Assembly: GCA_041746575.1 (NCBI GenBank) | Contig: JBGTGT010000083.1 | Coordinates: 1 to 53,721, forward strand | DNA from: Microcystaceae cyanobacterium | GTDB taxonomy: Bacteria; Cyanobacteriota; Cyanobacteriia; Cyanobacteriales; Microcystaceae | Length of the DNA stretch: 53,721 nucleotides | Direction of reading: 5' to 3' | Shown here: one piece after another, positions 21,056 to 28,156 of the stretch | How the letters are laid out: each line of letters begins with the position of its first letter | How positions within the stretch are numbered: the stretch's first letter is position 1 | Position numbers and translations under genes: made by a program | Notes under the pieces: model-generated | Told to the model about the DNA's origin: nothing | What the model saw: only the letters and a program-made list of their open reading frames with translations | The model's database searches: none

Positions 21056-22093
21056 GTGAATCTCAGTCGGCGTGATTTAATCAGAATTGCCTCAACATCG
21101 GGTTTAGGCGTTATTGGACTAGCGGCCGCTCAAAAAAGCCTAAATTCGCTTTCGTCGTCTCCACAAACCTTAGCTATGGACGCAAACCCTGAAAAAATGC
21201 TCTATCGAACATTAGGACGTACCGGAGAACAAGTCTCGTTGATCGGTTTGGGGGGTCACCATATTGGACGAATAGCGGATGCTTCCGAAGCAATCTCACT
21301 GATGCGAAAAGCCCTTGAACACGGTATTAATTTTTGGGATAATTGTTGGGATTATCATCAAGGAGAGAGTGAAATCCGCATGGGAAAAGCACTGCAAGGG
21401 GGCTACCGAGATCGGGTTTTTTTGATGACCAAAATTGACGGTCGTACGAAAGAGGCCGCCGCTCAGCAGATTGATGAATCGCTCAAACGTTTGCAGACTG
21501 ACCGGATCGATTTACTACAACATCATGAAGTAATTCGCCTAGAAGACCCTGATCGTATCTTTGCCGAAGGGGGGTCAATGGAAGCTGTTGTAGCCGCACA
21601 AAAAGCAGGGAAAGTTCGTTACATCGGTTTTACGGGACATAAAGATCCCCTTGTTCACCTGAGAATGCTAGAAATTGCCGATCAAAATCAATTTCGCTTT
21701 GATGCTGTGCAGATGCCCTTAAATGTCATGGATGCCCATTTTCGCAGTTTTGAGCAACGAGTTCTGCCCATTTTGCTTAAAAATGAGATTGGGGTATTGG
21801 GTATGAAATCGATGGGAGACAATTATATTCTTAAAAGTAAGGTCGTTAGCCCAATTGAGTGTCTGCACTATGCGATGAATCTGCCCACCTCAACGGTGAT
21901 TACAGGCATTGAGAGTCAAGCCATTCTCGATCAAGCGATTGAAGCTGTTCGCACGTTTCAACCGATGAGCCAAGAACAAGTGGTGGCTTTACTGGCGAGA
22001 ACTCAGAAATGGGCAGTTGGAGGAGAATACGAATTATTCAAGACAACGAGTCAATTCGACGGGACGGCTAAGAATCCTGAATGGTTAGGTTGA
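21056..22093 (+). CDS. Aldo/keto reductase with N-terminal twin-arginine signal
   Basis: AAGGAG RBS before GTG; SRRDLI; YRTLGRTG, GINFWDNCWDY, SLKRLQTDRIDL..H, GKVRYIGFTGH. Confidence 0.88.
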   Translation: MNLSRRDLIRIASTSGLGVIGLAAAQKSLNSLSSSPQTLAMDANPEKMLYRTLGRTGEQVSLIGLGGHHIGRIADASEAISLMRKALEHGINFWDNCWDYHQGESEIRMGKALQGGYRDRVFLMTKIDGRTKEAAAQQIDESLKRLQTDRIDLLQHHEVIRLEDPDRIFAEGGSMEAVVAAQKAGKVRYIGFTGHKDPLVHLRMLEIADQNQFRFDAVQMPLNVMDAHFRSFEQRVLPILLKNEIGVLGMKSMGDNYILKSKVVSPIECLHYAMNLPTSTVITGIESQAILDQAIEAVRTFQPMSQEQVVALLARTQKWAVGGEYELFKTTSQFDGTAKNPEWLG

Positions 22094-22196
22094 TACTCTA
22101 CTTTTTCCCCTAAAAACGGGAAATTCGGAGTTCAATAAACTTGAGTGCGATCGCCACTGGTTTGCTGAAATTAAATATTTTTTACTTCTTAAAGTT

Positions 22197-22396
22197 ACGT
22201 GAGTTCGACGAGGGCAATTATCTTAATCCTTTTGTTCATTCTAGTTTATTGGGATTAGGAAAAGAAAAACAAATTCTTGATTGGGGGACTAGCCCCCCTA
22301 ACCCCCCAACGGGGGACGGAGTGCCTCCCCCGCACCCCCTGCACAAAAAAATTAAATAAAGAAGTCTCGTAGATTTTTTGATGGTCGAACTCACGT
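22197..22396. mobile_element. 200-bp MITE (non-autonomous element, AC...GT ends, possibly IS982-related)
   Basis: Perfect 13-bp TIR ACGTGAGTTCGAC (22197-22209) / GTCGAACTCACGT (22384-22396); 7-bp direct repeat TAAAGTT at 22190-22196 and 22397-22403; no transposase. Confidence 0.85.
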
Positions 22397-22705
22397 TAAA
22401 GTTGGAGACTGACAGAAGAGGGAGATAATCATAAAATGGGTTGGGTGCTCGCACCCCTACAGAATTATGGTCGTTTAAACAGATTTGAGATGATTCTCAT
22501 CACAGATTCCCCTCATAGGGAAATTTTGGATTTTCTACATTTATTTCCTTTTATTTCCATGTTGCCTTTGAGGATTTTCCCGATTGCGCCCCAGCCATTC
22601 CCTTTATTTTGGGACTGACATCCTATAGAAATTTACCTAAGCTTAAGTCAATTGCTGAATCATTGAAGCAAAATTTACTCTAAAAGCTGAGGAGCTTCTT
22701 AAATA

Positions 22706-23020
22706 ATGAAAAATCTTGTTCTATCTATTTTAGGCTTAACTTTTCTGGGTGCAATGCCCCTAGTCGCCTATGCAGGGGATGAAGTCAATGTGCAAACCAG
22801 TGATGTCGTCGTCACCCAAGATGGAAATGGTAACATTGGTGCGGTTACAACTGAACAGACCATTCGTTCTACGACTCGTTCCCGTTCAAGAGAACAAATG
22901 ACTAATAGTGCTGGCAACGTTCAAGATTATCGCGTAGATGTTTATCAGCGAGGAATGGGCAACGAAACCAGAGTTCGAGGTCGTCAGTCTGTTGAACGCA
23001 ATATCAACTATCGACGGTAA
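22706..23020 (+). CDS. Small secreted protein with two curlin-like repeats
   Basis: GAGGAG RBS; signal peptide (AYA); repeats NVQTSDVVVTQDGNGNIGAVTTEQTI and NVQDYRVDVYQRGMGNETRVRGRQSV. Confidence 0.8.
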   Translation: MKNLVLSILGLTFLGAMPLVAYAGDEVNVQTSDVVVTQDGNGNIGAVTTEQTIRSTTRSRSREQMTNSAGNVQDYRVDVYQRGMGNETRVRGRQSVERNINYRR

Positions 23021-23035
23021 TTGAAAGATATTGAG

Positions 23036-23073
23036 AGAAGGAAGAATCAAAATAGCTATTCTTTCCTTCTTTT
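23036..23073 (+). terminator. Stem-loop with short U tract after the first gene of the secreted-protein cluster
   Basis: AGAAGGAAGAAT-loop-ATTCTTTCCTTCT followed by TTT. Confidence 0.5.
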
Positions 23074-23103
23074 GTTAAAAATAGACGTCAAGAGGCTAAA
23101 TTT

Positions 23104-23433
23104 ATGATTTCTCAGTCCTTATCAGGATGGCTCGCTATTGGACTCCTTATTTTATTTTCAGGTGTCGTTGAAGCGGGAGAAATTCAGATTAATACGGGAA
23201 GGGTGAGGGTAGAGAAAGGAACGACAGGAAACATTACGGTAGAAACGGGGGAATGGCGTCGAAGAAATGAATTGAAACGCTCATTTTATCCTCATGACTC
23301 GTTTGTGAACCCTTATTATCCCTATGATAACGTCAATCACTGTCAGATGAGATCCCATCAAGACGTTCAATCCAGCGATCGCAATGGTCGCTATCAACAT
23401 CATCATCTTAATATCAGTCAGCGATGTTCTTAA
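23104..23433 (+). CDS. Small secreted protein
   Basis: AGAGG RBS; signal peptide ending VEA; beta-rich N-terminal part; two Cys near the C-terminus. Confidence 0.75.
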   Translation: MISQSLSGWLAIGLLILFSGVVEAGEIQINTGRVRVEKGTTGNITVETGEWRRRNELKRSFYPHDSFVNPYYPYDNVNHCQMRSHQDVQSSDRNGRYQHHHLNISQRCS

Positions 23434-23477
23434 AAAAGCGTAAACAGACAATCACTCTAAGGAGGAGGTGCTAATTC

Positions 23478-23849
23478 ATGAAACCTAGCTTATTTTTATT
23501 AAGTGTAGCTGTCATTTCAACAGGATGGGCTAATCATCCTTCCGTTAGTCAATGCGTACAGGCGGATGTCTCAGTTCAATATAGCATCCGTTCTTCAAAG
23601 CAACCGACAGAGCGAAGCAACGATGTGACGATGAAACCAGATCCTGAGTGTAGCGGTAATGCTAGTATTACAACTGGGATACAGGGATATCGAGGGGATC
23701 AAGAAAACCTACGACAACAACGACGCATTCGTCAGGTACAACAAGGGGGGCAGAGTAATAGGTCTGGGATAGAGGGCAATACTGTACAAATTCGCTCTAA
23801 TGTCCAAAAAGACTTTTATTTGCCTAGATTACCGAACAAAGTTGATTAA
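23478..23849 (+). CDS. Small secreted protein, Gln/Asn/Ser-rich with a Cys pair
   Basis: AAGGAGGAGG RBS; signal peptide; CVQADVSVQ...CSGNASITTG. Confidence 0.78.
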   Translation: MKPSLFLLSVAVISTGWANHPSVSQCVQADVSVQYSIRSSKQPTERSNDVTMKPDPECSGNASITTGIQGYRGDQENLRQQRRIRQVQQGGQSNRSGIEGNTVQIRSNVQKDFYLPRLPNKVD

Positions 23850-23876
23850 GGTTGACGTTAGTGAGGGATATGAGTT

Positions 23877-24311
23877 ATGAATCGTCTTTTTATTCGTTCT
23901 TTCAGGGGTATAGGAAATCTTTTAGGGGCAATAAGTCTGCTATTTGTCTCTGGGACAATGGGAGAGGCTGTGATAGCTCAAAATTATGGGCAAAGCATTC
24001 ATACAGTGACTGTTTTCTCAGAAAATCTCAATCAACCTTATTGGTTAATCATCAATGCACCCCCTTCTACCCAAATTAGCGGAGAAATTCGCCTGAATGA
24101 TCGCTTGATTCAGCGACTCAATTCTCCTTCTCTTCGTCTTAATCTTATGCCCTATCTAGGTTTGGGTCGTTATCGCTTGGAAATTATCGGTCACTATACG
24201 CCATCGGATAACGGGATTGAACTGTCTTTATCGGGTGGAAATACGCAAATTAACCAGCGAACGGCGGGAAGTGGTGTAATTAATCACATTATTAATCTTG
24301 AGGTCAAATAA
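23877..24311 (+). CDS. Secreted beta-sandwich-like protein
   Basis: Signal-like N-terminus; alternating beta-strand pattern (GEIRLND, GRYRLEIIGHY, IELSLSG). Confidence 0.72.
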   Translation: MNRLFIRSFRGIGNLLGAISLLFVSGTMGEAVIAQNYGQSIHTVTVFSENLNQPYWLIINAPPSTQISGEIRLNDRLIQRLNSPSLRLNLMPYLGLGRYRLEIIGHYTPSDNGIELSLSGGNTQINQRTAGSGVINHIINLEVK

Positions 24312-24317
24312 TAAAGC

Positions 24318-24596
24318 ATGAATCGTATTTTATTGAGTACCCTATTATTTAGCACTCTGACGTTGCCGACGTTAGCACAAAACACTGATCAAAGTGCTTC
24401 AGCAGAAGCCAATATCTTGGGTAATAACAATACCGTTAATCAGACGATTAATCAAACCATTATTTATCATCCGGGTATTGTCAATCGTCGGGAAAATAAA
24501 GAAAAAACTGAAAATCGAGGACAGTCTCGTTCAAGATTTCAGGGCGAAGAAACGACTAAAAAGAAACAAAAGCACGGCTATAACAATCTCATTTAG
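24318..24596 (+). CDS. Small secreted protein with one curlin-like repeat and a basic C-tail
   Basis: GAGG RBS; signal peptide (TLA); QSASAEANILGNNNTVNQTINQTI; K/R-rich tail. Confidence 0.75.
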   Translation: MNRILLSTLLFSTLTLPTLAQNTDQSASAEANILGNNNTVNQTINQTIIYHPGIVNRRENKEKTENRGQSRSRFQGEETTKKKQKHGYNNLI

Positions 24597-24671
24597 ATTG
24601 TAAATCAAACTAAAAATAGAAAGCGGGGAACAAACAACAGGGGCGGTGTTTTCAGCTTTTTTCTTATTTAA

Positions 24672-25613
24672 CTATAATGATCGAACTTGAGCAATAATAG
24701 CACGATGACGGGGACTAATAGGGGTAATTTGTGGGGTTTGAAAACCTGCCTCTATTAAGGCTGAAACTACATCTAAGGTGAAGTATTGATCGAGATAAGG
24801 TTCGGTACTTTTGAGCAAGGTTAAGACGTAGGGAGGCATTTTTCGATATACTTCTGAACGAGGATTCATGTCCATCATCGCAAAGTAACCCCCATTGCCT
24901 AAAACCCGTCTGGCTTCTTGAAAAATCGCTTTAGCGGCACTTTGAGGCAGTTCATGAAACACCAGAAAGGCAGAAACGAGATCAAAGCTGTTATTTGGGA
25001 ATCCTGTTGCTTCTGCGGCAGCGTGAAGCCAAGTAATGTGATGATTTTCGTAGAATTGACTCCGATATTGTGCTACAGCAAGACAATAAGCCGATAAATC
25101 CAGTCCGGTAATCTGAGATTGGGGATAAGCCTTTTGAAGGGGAAAGGTACTTAAGCCCGCACTACACCCAAGATCAAGAATATTTTGAGGGGGTTGTATT
25201 AATTGAGATTTGAGGACATGATGGTAATTTTGACGAATTTTGGCATCTCCTTCAATGCTAATGCCTTCTGTATCCTTCCAAATCGTTGAATGTACCGCTT
25301 TTGCCGCCGATTCTACTTCTAAGGCCGCTTCCCAACACAAATTCCCCTGCTCATAGGCATGGAAAGAGGCTAGATAATAATCAGGATAGCTTATTTGAGT
25401 ATTTTCTATTTTTGTATATACTTCTGTCCAATTCTGAGCTTTTTTCAAAATTTTTACATTATTTCGCCAAGGAACACCTATTTTTTCCGCACGGTTAATC
25501 ATCATCTGACGTGCTTGATATTTTGCGATGTTCCACAGGGGTTTAATAGATAAAAGTCGATTGATAAGATGGGTTGTTAAAGGGGGTTGAGGGGTGGTTT
25601 CGGTGGCATTCAT
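24672..25613 (-). CDS. Class I SAM-dependent methyltransferase
   Basis: ILDLGCSAG, GLDLS, FDLVSAFLVFHELP. Confidence 0.88.
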   Translation of the reverse strand: MNATETTPQPPLTTHLINRLLSIKPLWNIAKYQARQMMINRAEKIGVPWRNNVKILKKAQNWTEVYTKIENTQISYPDYYLASFHAYEQGNLCWEAALEVESAAKAVHSTIWKDTEGISIEGDAKIRQNYHHVLKSQLIQPPQNILDLGCSAGLSTFPLQKAYPQSQITGLDLSAYCLAVAQYRSQFYENHHITWLHAAAEATGFPNNSFDLVSAFLVFHELPQSAAKAIFQEARRVLGNGGYFAMMDMNPRSEVYRKMPPYVLTLLKSTEPYLDQYFTLDVVSALIEAGFQTPQITPISPRHRAIIAQVRSL

Positions 25614-25790: not shown

Positions 25791-26678
25791 ATGATGTCTT
25801 TTAAAGATGCCCGTGATTATCAAATTCTTTTCTTAACGACCTTTCTTTTATTAGGAATTGTCACCAGAGACTGGACGTTAAAAATCGAATTAATTCCTAT
25901 TACGATCGCTGTTTGTTTGATCACACAATTTTTTTTATCACAGCTTAGTGATTTTGTCAAGGCTTTGTTTAATCAGCAAGGAAGCCAAAAGTACCATGCT
26001 CACTCTCGAAAATATCACTTTTTTGAGTTTCTGTCAACTTCTTCTTGGAAAAGTGCTTTAATAACGGCGTTAGGATTGTGCTTACTTTTGCGAGCGAATC
26101 ATTATCAAACGATGATTTTGGCAGGAAGTTTAGCGATTAGTAGTAAGTTCTTTTTACGATATCAAGAAAAGCATTTTTTTAATCCAGCGAATTTTGGCAT
26201 TATTGCCGCTTTATTGTTGACTCAAGATGCTTGGATTTCTCCCGGACAGTGGGGAACGGATTGGTGGTATTTATTATTATTTTTAGGACTGGGAGGCGTC
26301 GTTCTAAAACAAGTGGGACGATGGGATACTTCTGTGACTTTTTTACTTGCTTATCTAGGGTTAGAAGCCATGAGAAATTTTTGGCTAGGATGGAGTTGGG
26401 ATGTTTTGCAACATCAATTGATGAGTGGCAGTTTATTACTCTTTGCTCTTTTTATGTTGACGGATCCTCGTTCCCTTCCGAATGCAACTAAGGGACGATT
26501 AATTTGGGCAGTAAGTATTGCTATTTTAACCTTTATCTTGCAACATAGCTTTTATCTTTCGACGGCGATTTTTTGGGCATTATTTATCGTGTCACCGTTA
26601 ACCCTTATCTTAGATATTTACTGGTCATCTCCTCGCTTTACTTGGCACAAACAATTAACTGTAACCCATAATTTGTAA
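25791..26678 (+). CDS. NqrB/RnfD-family-like integral membrane protein (stand-alone)
   Basis: SALITALGLCLLL, SKF...KHFFNPANFG, FMLTDPRS. Confidence 0.72.
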   Translation: MMSFKDARDYQILFLTTFLLLGIVTRDWTLKIELIPITIAVCLITQFFLSQLSDFVKALFNQQGSQKYHAHSRKYHFFEFLSTSSWKSALITALGLCLLLRANHYQTMILAGSLAISSKFFLRYQEKHFFNPANFGIIAALLLTQDAWISPGQWGTDWWYLLLFLGLGGVVLKQVGRWDTSVTFLLAYLGLEAMRNFWLGWSWDVLQHQLMSGSLLLFALFMLTDPRSLPNATKGRLIWAVSIAILTFILQHSFYLSTAIFWALFIVSPLTLILDIYWSSPRFTWHKQLTVTHNL

Positions 26679-26776
26679 CTTGTTTGTCGAAAAAAATGAA
26701 GAGTTTTTTGGAAAATAATTTTAATTTCTGTAATCTCTTCTTACTTTTTATTCTTCCCAATACTCTCTACTGGAAA

Positions 26777-28156
26777 ATGATAAAACTATCTCAACTCTTT
26801 TTGACTTTTTTCCTAACCCTAATAGTGAGCTTAGGATTCCTAGAACCCGCTTGGGCTTTCTGTGGCTTTTATGTATCTAAAGCTGATAGTAACTTATATA
26901 ATCAAACCTCTCAAGTAATTATCGCTCGTGAGGGCGATCGCACCCTTTTAACGATGGCAAATGACTATCAAGGGGAAGTCAAAGATTTTGCTTTAGTTGT
27001 ACCTGTACCGGTGGTGATTAAAAAAGAACAAGTTAATATTGGAGATCCCCAAATTATCAATCGGTTAGATAGTTTTAGTGCGCCTCGTTTAGTAGAGTAT
27101 TTTGATGCTAATCCCTGTGACATCAGAGCATTTGATGAAGCGGTGCCTCAGCCTGCACCAGCATCTGCTTCCTTAGAAGCCGGAAAAGTTGAAAGAAATA
27201 ATGCACTCGGTGTAACGATAGAAGAACAATTTTCAGTCGGCGAATATGACATCTTAATTCTCAGTGCCAAAGAATCCAACGGCTTAGAAACATGGTTAAG
27301 ACAAAATGGCTATCAAATACCGTCCGGTGCTAGTACCGTTTTACAACCCTATATTCGTCAACAAATGAAATTTTTTGTGGCGAAAGTGAATCTCAAAGAA
27401 TATGCTAAATCCGACTTTCAAACCTTACGCCCTTTGATGATAGCTTACGAGTCAGCTAAATTTATGTTACCCATTCGTTTAGGGATGGTTAATGCCAAAG
27501 GAGAGCAAGATTTAATTGTTTATTTACTCTCGCCTCAAGGACAAACCGAATTAACCAATTATCGCACAGTGCAAATTCCTTCAGATGTCGATATTCCTGA
27601 ATTTGTTGAGCCAGAATTCAGTAAGTTTTATCAAGCGATGTTTACGCATTCCTATCGCCAAGAAGGGAAAAAAGTGGCTTTTGTCGAATATGCGTGGAAT
27701 ATGAGTAATTGTGACCCTTGTTCTGCTGAACCTTTATCCCCTGAAGAATTAAGAAAAGCAGGAGTTTTTTGGCTTAATAATGCTGATTCTCAAGGACGAT
27801 TTGTCCCCAATTTCCAAAATGTTTTTATCACCCGTCTGCATATTCGTTATCAAAGAGAAACCTTTCCAGAAGATTTAAAATTTCAAGCGACAAATAATCA
27901 ACAACTTTTTCAAGGTCGTTATGTTTTACGTCGTCCGTATCGAGGGGAAATGAAATGTAATGCGGCACAAGGTTATTTAGAATCGGTGAAAACGCGTCAA
28001 GAACAAGAAGCTCAAACTTTAGCTCGTTTAACGGGATGGAATTTGAGGCAGATTCTTAACAAAATTGATTTTGTGGATGTTAAACCCACCACTTGGTGGT
28101 GCAGATTATGGTCTTGTAAAGGCTTTCAAAAATATCGTAATTTTCAGATAAGATAA
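26777..28156 (+). CDS. DUF2330 domain secreted protein
   Basis: Signal ending AWA then FCGFYV; FALVVPVP, FSAPRLVEYFD, MLPIRLG, EYAWNM..CDPC, FITRLH. Confidence 0.8.
   Translation: MIKLSQLFLTFFLTLIVSLGFLEPAWAFCGFYVSKADSNLYNQTSQVIIAREGDRTLLTMANDYQGEVKDFALVVPVPVVIKKEQVNIGDPQIINRLDSFSAPRLVEYFDANPCDIRAFDEAVPQPAPASASLEAGKVERNNALGVTIEEQFSVGEYDILILSAKESNGLETWLRQNGYQIPSGASTVLQPYIRQQMKFFVAKVNLKEYAKSDFQTLRPLMIAYESAKFMLPIRLGMVNAKGEQDLIVYLLSPQGQTELTNYRTVQIPSDVDIPEFVEPEFSKFYQAMFTHSYRQEGKKVAFVEYAWNMSNCDPCSAEPLSPEELRKAGVFWLNNADSQGRFVPNFQNVFITRLHIRYQRETFPEDLKFQATNNQQLFQGRYVLRRPYRGEMKCNAAQGYLESVKTRQEQEAQTLARLTGWNLRQILNKIDFVDVKPTTWWCRLWSCKGFQKYRNFQIR

Follow-up and report, generated by a model that had tools for sequence, protein, structure and literature searches.

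A conserved five-gene operon of small, predicted secreted proteins as a candidate fibre or matrix system of cyanobacteria

Curli and the Fap fibrils of Pseudomonas are among the described systems that come closest to the operon reported here. Curli are built from CsgA, a protein with five repeats that follow the motif S-x5-Q-x-G-x-G-N-x-A-x3-Q, and in the Fap system a secreted repeat protein stacks into a beta-solenoid fibril. Among cyanobacteria, the EbfG proteins of Synechococcus elongatus PCC 7942 reportedly leave the cell by means of a double-glycine leader and a dedicated peptidase-transporter. According to excerpts of PMC9981879, an operon encodes four of these small secreted biofilm matrix proteins (EbfG1-4), three being amyloid-prone in a curli-based reporter assay and one being located at the cell surface and in the matrix, and its authors propose that the roles of nucleator and subunit are split between them. 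The cyanobacterial tubular (CT) pilus of Microcystis aeruginosa, made of the pilin MrpC (BH695_0841), is described in excerpts of PMC12397347. We analysed a stretch of 53,721 nucleotides (nt) from a Microcystaceae cyanobacterium (assembly GCA_041746575.1, contig JBGTGT010000083.1, positions 1 to 53,721; "the window" hereafter means this whole stretch), in which an operon of five small genes, called g1 to g5, lies on the forward strand at 22706-24596. An earlier note made from the sequence of the window had put the operon forward as a candidate amyloid or fibre system. Our preferred reading, to which we give a probability of about 0.45, is that the operon builds an extracytoplasmic beta-rich polymer, either a fibre or a matrix, that works like curli without being kin to curli.

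The operon consists of five co-directional open reading frames (ORFs): g1 (22706-23020, 104 aa), g2 (23104-23433, 109 aa), g3 (23478-23849, 123 aa), g4 (23877-24311, 144 aa) and g5 (24318-24596, 92 aa), separated by 83, 44, 27 and 6 nt, respectively. The limits and the close spacing given for these ORFs in the earlier note proved exact, and the ribosome-binding sites that it had described could be extended to every gene, as a GAGG/GGAG-type motif lies 12-19 nt 5' of all five starts. All five products begin with a hydrophobic stretch which, as read from the sequence, ends in a small-x-small site (AYA/G, VEA/G, VSQ/C, VIA/Q and TLA/Q). These signal-like N-termini, also noticed before, are kept across the family alignments, and export of g1-g5 by the Sec pathway is predicted. 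The mature proteins are basic, with isoelectric points (pI) of 8.4-9.8, and their combined Gln, Asn, Ser and Thr content of 31-42% stands against 22.7 +/- 4.1% in the 36 window ORFs of at least 200 aa, in line with the richness in these residues first remarked on. Scans of g1-g5 against Pfam, NCBIfam, PHROGs and PADLOC returned no family at its cut-off; the earlier note had seen no enzyme motif in any of the five. Rows for DUF4642, PatX and BCL_N among the operon proteins were weak and compositional and were set aside.

We investigated the conservation of the operon by fetching 16 related loci and clustering their ORFs into families. All five families occur in the order g1-g2-g3-g4-g5 at eight of these loci. 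At three more, one or three copies of g1 are followed by g2-g3-g4 and then by a protein of 366-368 aa in the g5 slot. Four loci keep this order with only three or four families, and one has g4 alone. Because homologues of every gene are found in other cyanobacteria in the same order, the five genes are not chance ORFs; the earlier note had named a lack of co-occurrence in other genomes as evidence against its proposal, and what was found is a conserved module. No flanking gene family is common to more than four of the 16 loci, so the module is self-contained and placed in varied neighbourhoods. The 68 database homologues of g3 and the 57 found with the g1 profile all lack a Pfam domain and carry either no name or the label "hypothetical". 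Their named carriers are exclusively cyanobacterial (Crocosphaera, Rippkaea, Hydrococcus, Halothece, Myxosarcina, Pleurocapsa and Xenococcaceae), and the cultured carriers of the module are Crocosphaera subtropica ATCC 51142, Rippkaea orientalis PCC 8801 and Halothece PCC 7418. A g4 profile of 16 sequences found 270 representative proteins at E <= 0.001 among 1.84 billion.

Two genome sets gave a measure of the module's reach. Among 61 related genomes, g1 was detected in 13, g4 in 15 and both in 12, with all but one of the positives in the window's own family; two genomes of the same genus (92% and 77% complete) showed no g1 or g4 match. The second set was an even sample of the phylum (401 genomes), in which the counts are descriptive and not a test, since the genomes are related. 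It was searched with a g4 profile of 68 sequences (the window protein and 67 of the 150 listed) and a g3 profile of 44 sequences (the window protein, 33 of the 68 homologues and 10 locus copies). We detected g4 in 17 of these genomes, g3 in 20, which makes it the family present in most genomes here, and both in 13, and all positives belong to one cyanobacterial order. In 10 of the 13 genomes with both genes, g3 and g4 were no more than 1 kb apart; in one the distance was 4.2 kb, and in two they lay on different contigs. At a locus of a large-genome cyanobacterium (L048, 3473-5996), the gap of about 4 kb between g3 and g4 holds a 605 aa ORF that looks by eye like a reverse transcriptase/maturase and a 237 aa ORF that looks like a transposase.

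The first gene encodes the proposed major subunit. After a signal-like N-terminus (residues 1-23, from the sequence), the mature g1 protein has 81 residues and contains two repeats, placed by repeat alignment at residues ~25-57 (R1, nt 22778-22876) and ~68-100 (R2, nt 22907-23005), which are joined by a basic Ser/Arg linker. An alignment of the window protein with 14 locus copies and 30 of the 57 homologues yielded the repeat consensus x-V-Q-x-S-x-Q-x-x-x-Q-x-G-x-x-N-x-S-x-Q-x-x-x-Q-x-N; family members end in basic residues, the window g1 in RR. R1 and R2 are homologous to each other (hhalign 95.9%, E 6e-9, signal peptides trimmed). The low-confidence AlphaFold2 model of g1 has four long strands (27-41, 44-57, 70-84 and 87-100) with turns at the Gly/Asn positions and no helix. 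Along each of these strands, every second residue is better conserved than those between (mean top-residue frequency 0.64-0.80 versus 0.36-0.42), and the conserved face reads N-Q-S-Q-S-Q-G / N-S-Q-S-Q-N, that is, N/Q/S/G throughout. We infer that this polar Gln/Ser/Asn face on long strands resembles the side-chain ladders of stacked beta-solenoids.

Comparison of the two repeats with each other pointed the same way. Equivalent R1 and R2 positions are identical in 35% of cells, versus 5-16% for registers shifted by 1-4, and some of them co-vary: one subgroup has N/N and another I/I at 53/96, and at 34/77, 36/79 and 47/90 the window g1 shows V/V instead of the Q/Q, S/S and Q/Q of most sequences. 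At the level of sequence, this co-variation fits an in-register stacking of R1 on R2, and a stacked beta-arch subunit is the best reading of g1. One may speculate that the more hydrophobic core of the window protein, with its six Val residues, is a heat adaptation; the DNA sequencing runs linked to it, four from one study of which three are possible sources, are labelled as hot-spring metagenomes. The role of major subunit given to g1 in the earlier note is further supported by up to three tandem copies in relatives (L034, L037 and the contig G033:C2) and by the longest spacer of the operon, with a hairpin in it, lying 3' of g1.

The last gene, g5, is a shorter relative of the first. It carries a single, highly conserved repeat unit, ANILGNNNTVNQTINQTIIYHPG (residues ~29-52, nt 24402-24473), followed by a Lys/Arg/Glu/Asn-rich tail (nt 24474-24593). 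Across the family the core is near-invariant (consensus SGDNNQVYQTINQTIINHPG, with G35, N37, N38, V40, Q42, Q46 and I49 invariant), while the tail is conserved in character only, as a richness in Lys, Arg, Glu, Asn and His. Mature g1 and mature g5 align with an hhalign value of 89% (E 2e-6, 29 columns), and g5 is therefore a one-repeat paralogue of g1. At four loci in Crocosphaera/Rippkaea-type genomes, each with one or three tandem g1 copies, the g5 slot is occupied by a long protein of 358-368 aa (L028, 8570-9670; L034, 9010-10116; L037, 9277-10383; L054, 1660-2736). This protein has several g5-like motifs (hhalign 66%) and a PEP-CTERM-like C-terminus of the type VPEP-hydrophobic-basic. Pfam PF07589 was seen in two of three such proteins at 16.3 and 17.7 bits, under its cut-off of 20.7, and TIGR02595 in one of four at 13 bits versus a cut-off of 16; the UniRef name of one long form, cce_2074, is PEP-CTERM sorting-domain protein. 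The window g5 has no PEP-CTERM-type tail. The earlier proposal that g5 is a nucleator or anchor with a basic tail fits by analogy with CsgB, given a one-repeat paralogue of g1 and an anchor-like long protein in the same slot at four loci.

Published data from Crocosphaera subtropica ATCC 51142 were used to assess expression. By exact look-ups, the orthologues of g1-g5 in this strain are cce_1572 to cce_1576 (31-51% identical), and a second locus contains cce_2070 (g1), cce_2073 (g4) and cce_2074 (the long g5 form). In the excerpted part of supplement 1 of PMC4431719, a table of 5,193 gene rows sorted by average raw array intensity, which is probe-dependent, cce_1572 (g1) ranks 23rd (136,341), among photosystem and phycobilisome genes. 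It is followed by cce_1573 (g2) at rank 57 (85,807), cce_1576 (g5) at 162 (38,679), cce_1574 (g3) at 208 (29,155) and cce_1575 (g4) at 293 (18,766); at the second locus, cce_2070 ranks 1,322nd and cce_2074 3,339th. Table S2 of PMC3043056 lists the cce_2070 protein as identified by mass spectrometry from 10 peptides and 129 spectra, with 58% of the sequence covered. In a supplement of PMC2695482, cce_1575 bears the group label "LRG", for which the main text of that paper gives no explanation and to which we attach no meaning. The array and mass-spectrometry data together indicate that the module is expressed, and the g1 gene gives the strongest signal of the operon, as expected for a major subunit. 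The earlier note had not recognised the operon as a described system, and we found no paper naming these genes: full-text searches of papers for cce_1572-1576, cce_2070-2074, PCC8801_2291-2295, PCC7418_0812 and PCC7418_0813 gave no match, the tags occurring in supplementary tables only.

We next turn to the three middle genes. The g2 protein has an N-terminal beta-hairpin-like motif, EIxVQTGNVRIxxxxNGxIxIxTG, and then a variable basic middle part; in an alignment of 18 sequences, only M1, C80 and C108 are invariant. It sits between g1 and g3 in related loci, its profile has no sequence relative in the PDB at E <= 0.1, and we propose that it is an accessory protein. The g3 protein is the best conserved member of the operon (~50% identity), with GN-containing beta-like motifs and the invariant residues C26 and C58. 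Its nearest clusters in the ESM Atlas are cyanobacterial, carry the label "secreted protein" and have no Pfam family, and its profile found no sequence relative in the PDB. Small exported proteins with conserved, disulfide-type cysteine pairs, as in g2 and g3, could also be secreted signalling or antimicrobial peptides or have another non-structural secreted function, as in a bacteriocin-like cluster. The patchy distribution, with no match in the two same-genus genomes and one copy on a circular-looking contig of 50.9 kb, would suit such a function. It is nevertheless very unlikely, as the neighbourhood of the module at the 16 loci has no conserved gene for an immunity protein, a transporter, a protease or a modifying enzyme, no PADLOC or Pfam match was obtained, and photosystem-level expression and tandem copies suit bulk material better than a signal.

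The g4 protein is the only one of the five with a high-confidence model. AlphaFold2, run on 68 sequences, predicts an immunoglobulin (Ig)/fibronectin type III (FN3)-like beta-sandwich at residues 38-144 (nt 23988-24308), with a mean predicted local distance difference test score (pLDDT) of 85.9 and values above 95 over residues 40-144. The earlier description of all five proteins as rich in beta-strand thus stands for the two proteins that were modelled, g4 and, with low confidence, g1. Foldseek and VIA-align matched g4 to generic Ig, FN3 and carbohydrate-module sandwiches only (best Z 6.1, no Foldseek row at E <= 0.001), so that no specific family can be named, and CsgC was not among the rows shown. 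The g4 profile gave signal-peptide or chance rows only against PDB sequences. The last hairpin of g4, GGNTQINQRTAGSGVINHIINLEV, weakly resembles the repeat of g5 and g1 (g5 core versus g4 C-terminus, hhalign 52.6%, E 1.4e-4), which we take as a lead only. We propose that g4 is an accessory protein, whether cap, nucleator, chaperone or carbohydrate binder.

The last of these roles leads to another explanation, in which g1-g5 are abundant non-fibrillar envelope proteins, small, basic and hydrophilic. They would form no defined polymer and would instead coat the periplasm, the peptidoglycan, the outer membrane or the exopolysaccharide sheath, or help to organise it. In a variant of this explanation, they might bind polysaccharide or retain water, g4 being a carbohydrate-binding beta-sandwich. 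The pI values of 8.4-9.8, the very hydrophilic character of the proteins and the basic tails on g1 and g5 agree with this, as does the absence of an outer-membrane export component from every locus, and high expression fits any abundant structural protein. In addition, g4 aligns with accessory sandwich domains of glycosidases (Z 5.5-5.9), and 5 of its 68 relatives have weak carbohydrate-module matches (Glyco_hydro_2_N in three, CBM-like in one and CE2_N in one, Big_7 being named as well), all of which are below cut-off. We nonetheless consider envelope proteins of this kind somewhat unlikely. The two-residue period of conservation and the co-variation of the repeats point to a defined, stacked fold and not to disorder, and a fixed order of five families that includes a paralogous major/minor pair is typical of assembly systems.

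The organization of the operon recalls that of curli. Both are operons of small Sec-exported proteins (export being predicted here), with a major subunit of strand-turn-strand repeats in which set positions are held by Gln, Gly and Asn, a minor subunit that is its paralogue and a possible nucleator, and a small Ig-like sandwich protein in the cluster. They differ in that g1 has two repeats, with longer strands along which Gln and Ser alternate, whereas CsgA has five; in that the genome analysed here has no CsgG and there is no CsgE or CsgF; and in that this operon contains two extra cysteine-pair proteins and is confined to cyanobacteria. The g1 consensus fits the part S-x5-Q-x-G-x-x-N-x-S of the curlin motif, the spacing of the later Gln being different, and hhalign places the first half of the g1 repeat on CsgA residues 42-56. 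Pfam Curlin_rpt (PF07012) was found in the window g1 at 16.8 bits (E 0.0068), under the cut-off of 20.7.

The tests for kinship with curli are the first of several results that weigh against a curli-like polymer. Curlin_rpt reached E <= 0.1 in only 1 of 45 members of the g1 family, it reached E <= 1 in none of 22 other repeat and neighbour proteins of related loci, and no match over the cut-off exists in the whole genome. When the g1, g2, g3, g4, g5 and long-g5 profiles were compared with E. coli K-12 CsgA, B, C, E, F and G, no hhalign value exceeded 1.6% in 36 comparisons, although the Csg templates were single sequences, with which very remote relations could be missed; for g1 the values were 0.5% with CsgA and 1.2% with CsgB, and at most 0.4% for trimmed profiles. 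A search of PDB sequences with the g1 profile did not return CsgA at E <= 10. The earlier note had seen no CsgG-like channel in the window, and none over the cut-off exists in the genome either (99.8% complete; PF03783, best 14.4 bits versus 20.8, on another contig). The curlin-like repeats that it had ascribed to g1 and g5 hold as a motif, the repeats of the two proteins being related, and fail as a family assignment, and its likening of g2-g4 to the helper proteins of curli is not borne out by the Csg comparisons. As judged from sequence, g1 resembles curlin in its motif and no further. The Curlin_rpt value of the window g1, the fit of the first repeat half and its placement on CsgA would favour a genuine curli (type VIII secretion) system that has diverged very far. 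In view of the negative results, such a system is extremely improbable, and as far as sequence methods reach it is already refuted.

The structural comparisons are mixed. Confidence in the g1 monomer model is low (pLDDT 63; 44-57 for the other four models), and the protein is short and strongly hydrophilic (grand average of hydropathy -1.14, 26% hydrophobic residues). Against 48,161 PDB representatives, VIA-align aligned this model with only two chains at Z >= 2, namely 8enq_A, an E. coli CsgA fibril (root-mean-square deviation 3.1 A over 48 residues), and 9u4u_A, a FapC fibril (2.6 A over 60 residues), both at Z 3.0. That these two fibrils alone were matched speaks for a stacked subunit, but Z 3.0 is far under the level that the aligner itself treats as meaningful. 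Foldseek gave nothing at E <= 0.001 for the g1 model; its top rows were FapC 9nqd (E 2.0) and HET-s, at E 2-6, and a re-check by VIA-align of Foldseek's eight chains, this other FapC entry and HET-s included, found none at Z >= 2. Likeness to Fap lies in the stacking proposed for g1 and in the weak alignment of FapC with a low-confidence model, while no sequence relation was seen and no FapF-type channel or Fap genes were noticed, FapF itself not having been searched for. The g1 and g5 profiles returned signal-peptide or chance rows only from PDB sequences, and the best ESM Atlas score for g1 was 0.87, with a "putative DUF3060" cluster at 0.86, both under the 0.9 level. Gene conversion between the repeats, and not contact between them, could be the source of the R1/R2 co-variation. 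As to expression, the array intensities come from another species, and cce_1572-1576 were not found in the proteome tables searched, which did not cover two PDF files. Finally, no outer-membrane channel gene lies in or beside the module at any locus, which leaves an extracellular location unsupported, and proteins with a Sec signal may in cyanobacteria also end up in the periplasm or in the lumen of the thylakoids.

The four long strands of the g1 model, arranged in two pairs, are also compatible with a non-amyloid pilus akin to the CT pilus of Microcystis, in which beta-hairpin subunits are packed into a tube by antiparallel sheets. In the excerpts of PMC12397347, the CT pilin is a small protein with a signal peptide and two long beta-hairpins, restricted to cyanobacteria and exported by a route that is not known, and a pilin-like paralogue is encoded beside it, as g5 is in the g1 operon. 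Both belong to the same broad cyanobacterial group. The same excerpts give the CT pilin a C-terminal helix-turn-helix and heavy O-glycosylation, and its cluster an O-GlcNAc transferase and an FkbM methyltransferase. The g1 model has no such helix-turn-helix, and no O-GlcNAc transferase or methyltransferase is conserved beside the module at the 16 loci. Moreover, the conserved face of g1 is a Gln/Ser ladder, unlike the pattern described for the CT pilin in the excerpted text. Neither a sequence nor a fold match between g1 and the CT pilin emerged: the g1 profile found no PDB chain beyond signal-peptide matches, and Foldseek and VIA-align did not return the CT pilus. A CT-like pilus is accordingly an unlikely identity for the product of the operon, in our estimation clearly so. 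The EbfG proteins are set apart by description, in that the window proteins have Sec-type N-termini and a different repeat.

We therefore return to the polymer of stacked g1 subunits and describe how it might be assembled; the assembly, the location and the roles of g1-g5 are inferred. As the major subunit, g1 would be made in excess. Each of its repeats, of 27-33 residues, would form a strand, a Gly-x-x-Asn turn and a second strand; the repeats would stack on one another, with the conserved Gln, Ser and Asn side chains forming ladders on one face, and subunits would join end to end by the same repeat stacking. With its single repeat and basic tail, g5 would serve as the template for the first g1 and keep the polymer attached to the cell envelope, and in some relatives the long repeat protein with a membrane-anchor-like C-terminus would be its equivalent. 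The Ig-like sandwich of g4, with a repeat-like last hairpin, might act on the polymer as cap, chaperone or nucleator or link it to polysaccharide, and g2 and g3 would be disulfide-bonded minor components.

A more specific joint reading is possible, and we hold it tentatively. The operon would encode an undescribed functional amyloid, private to cyanobacteria and without a dedicated channel. Its subunit would be g1, as a beta-arch of two rungs with Gln/Ser ladders, seeded or held by the one-rung g5 through a basic tail or, in relatives, a PEP-CTERM-type anchor. It would further include the g4 sandwich, whose edge hairpin would mimic the repeat, and two disulfide-bonded proteins, all three unlike the helpers of curli and Fap. 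The polymer would be a major cell product, since in C. subtropica transcription of the g1 gene is on a par with that of photosystem genes, and the operon would be one branch of a wider set of g3/g4 cassettes with various Gly-x-Gly-Asn repeat proteins.

The notion of cassettes comes from the surroundings of g3 and g4, which in other cyanobacteria adjoin different small secreted repeat proteins. Such companions were seen at L053 (6119-6571), L057 (4351-4830), L062 (4390-4848), L058 (3141-4383), L045 (5463-6680) and L047 (5606-6828). Their types are proteins with NSGAAVGTGNVVDQ repeats, proteins of 150-160 aa with "QTGAAVGIGN" repeats, three tandem "GxGNVxGV" proteins of 111-116 aa, and Ala-rich proteins of 180-190 aa. 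In another large-genome cyanobacterium (L044, 9031-11144), at least four tandem genes upstream of g2-g3-g4 encode secreted proteins of 110-200 aa with QEGAAYDGSSVIQ repeats and cysteines, the stretch being partly masked (X/N). To judge from these sequences, the locus looks like a member of a family of cassettes with exchangeable subunits, the window operon being one branch of a larger set. The module may also be mobile. On the contig G033:C2 (50,894 bp), it spans both contig ends (L054, 1-2736; L055, 5854-6885), with three g1 copies at one end and g2-g3-g4 plus the long form of g5 at the opposite one, an arrangement that a circular replicon or plasmid would be expected to give.

Possible signals for transcription and the flanks of the operon were also inspected. 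The g1-g2 spacer contains a hairpin followed by a U-rich run (23033-23073, forward strand) that may act as a partial terminator or attenuator; its stability is -13.8 kcal/mol (z -1.57, 15 of 200 shuffles as stable), which is not significant on its own, and a consensus terminator scan did not report it. Hairpins of <= -10 kcal/mol followed by at least four T were found 3' of 14 of 24 g1 copies, a count made without a control. A second hairpin with a U-run, after the g5 stop (24618-24661, forward strand), likely marks the end of the operon; the fold of 24590-24670 has -14.3 kcal/mol (z -2.16, 5 of 200 shuffles as stable), again not significant alone. A scan for promoters and terminators gave counts no higher than those of shuffles. 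The spacer 5' of g1 is 612 nt long (22094-22705); no riboswitch was found in it, and Rfam gave no match at E <= 1 over 22000-24800. Within this spacer lies a G+C-rich stretch, CCAACGGGGGACGGAGTGCCTCCCCCGCACCCC (22306-22338), which is found at no other place in the window and lies between the arms of a perfect inverted repeat of 13 nt (22197-22209 and 22384-22396, 174 nt apart); the arrangement might reflect the insertion of a small element or form a structure with a role in regulation. The next gene after g5, at 24672-25613 on the opposite strand, looks methyltransferase-like by eye and is not kept beside the module in related loci. Beyond it, a membrane-protein ORF and an exported protein (25791-28156) are likewise not kept beside the module in other genomes.

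The sheaths, aggregates and biofilms that cyanobacteria form are important in blooms, in mats and for nitrogen-fixing unicells. Little is known of the proteins that scaffold them, and in the literature we met only two cases, the EbfG proteins and the CT pilus. The module described here is among the most strongly transcribed operons of one cultured model strain, and no paper was found that names it. Were it not to form fibres, it would still be an abundant and unexplained component of the cell envelope. If it does form them, it would be a further, independently evolved amyloid or pilus system of bacteria, one without a known outer-membrane export route, and the g1 subunit, very small at 81 residues and two repeats, would lend itself to structural and materials work.

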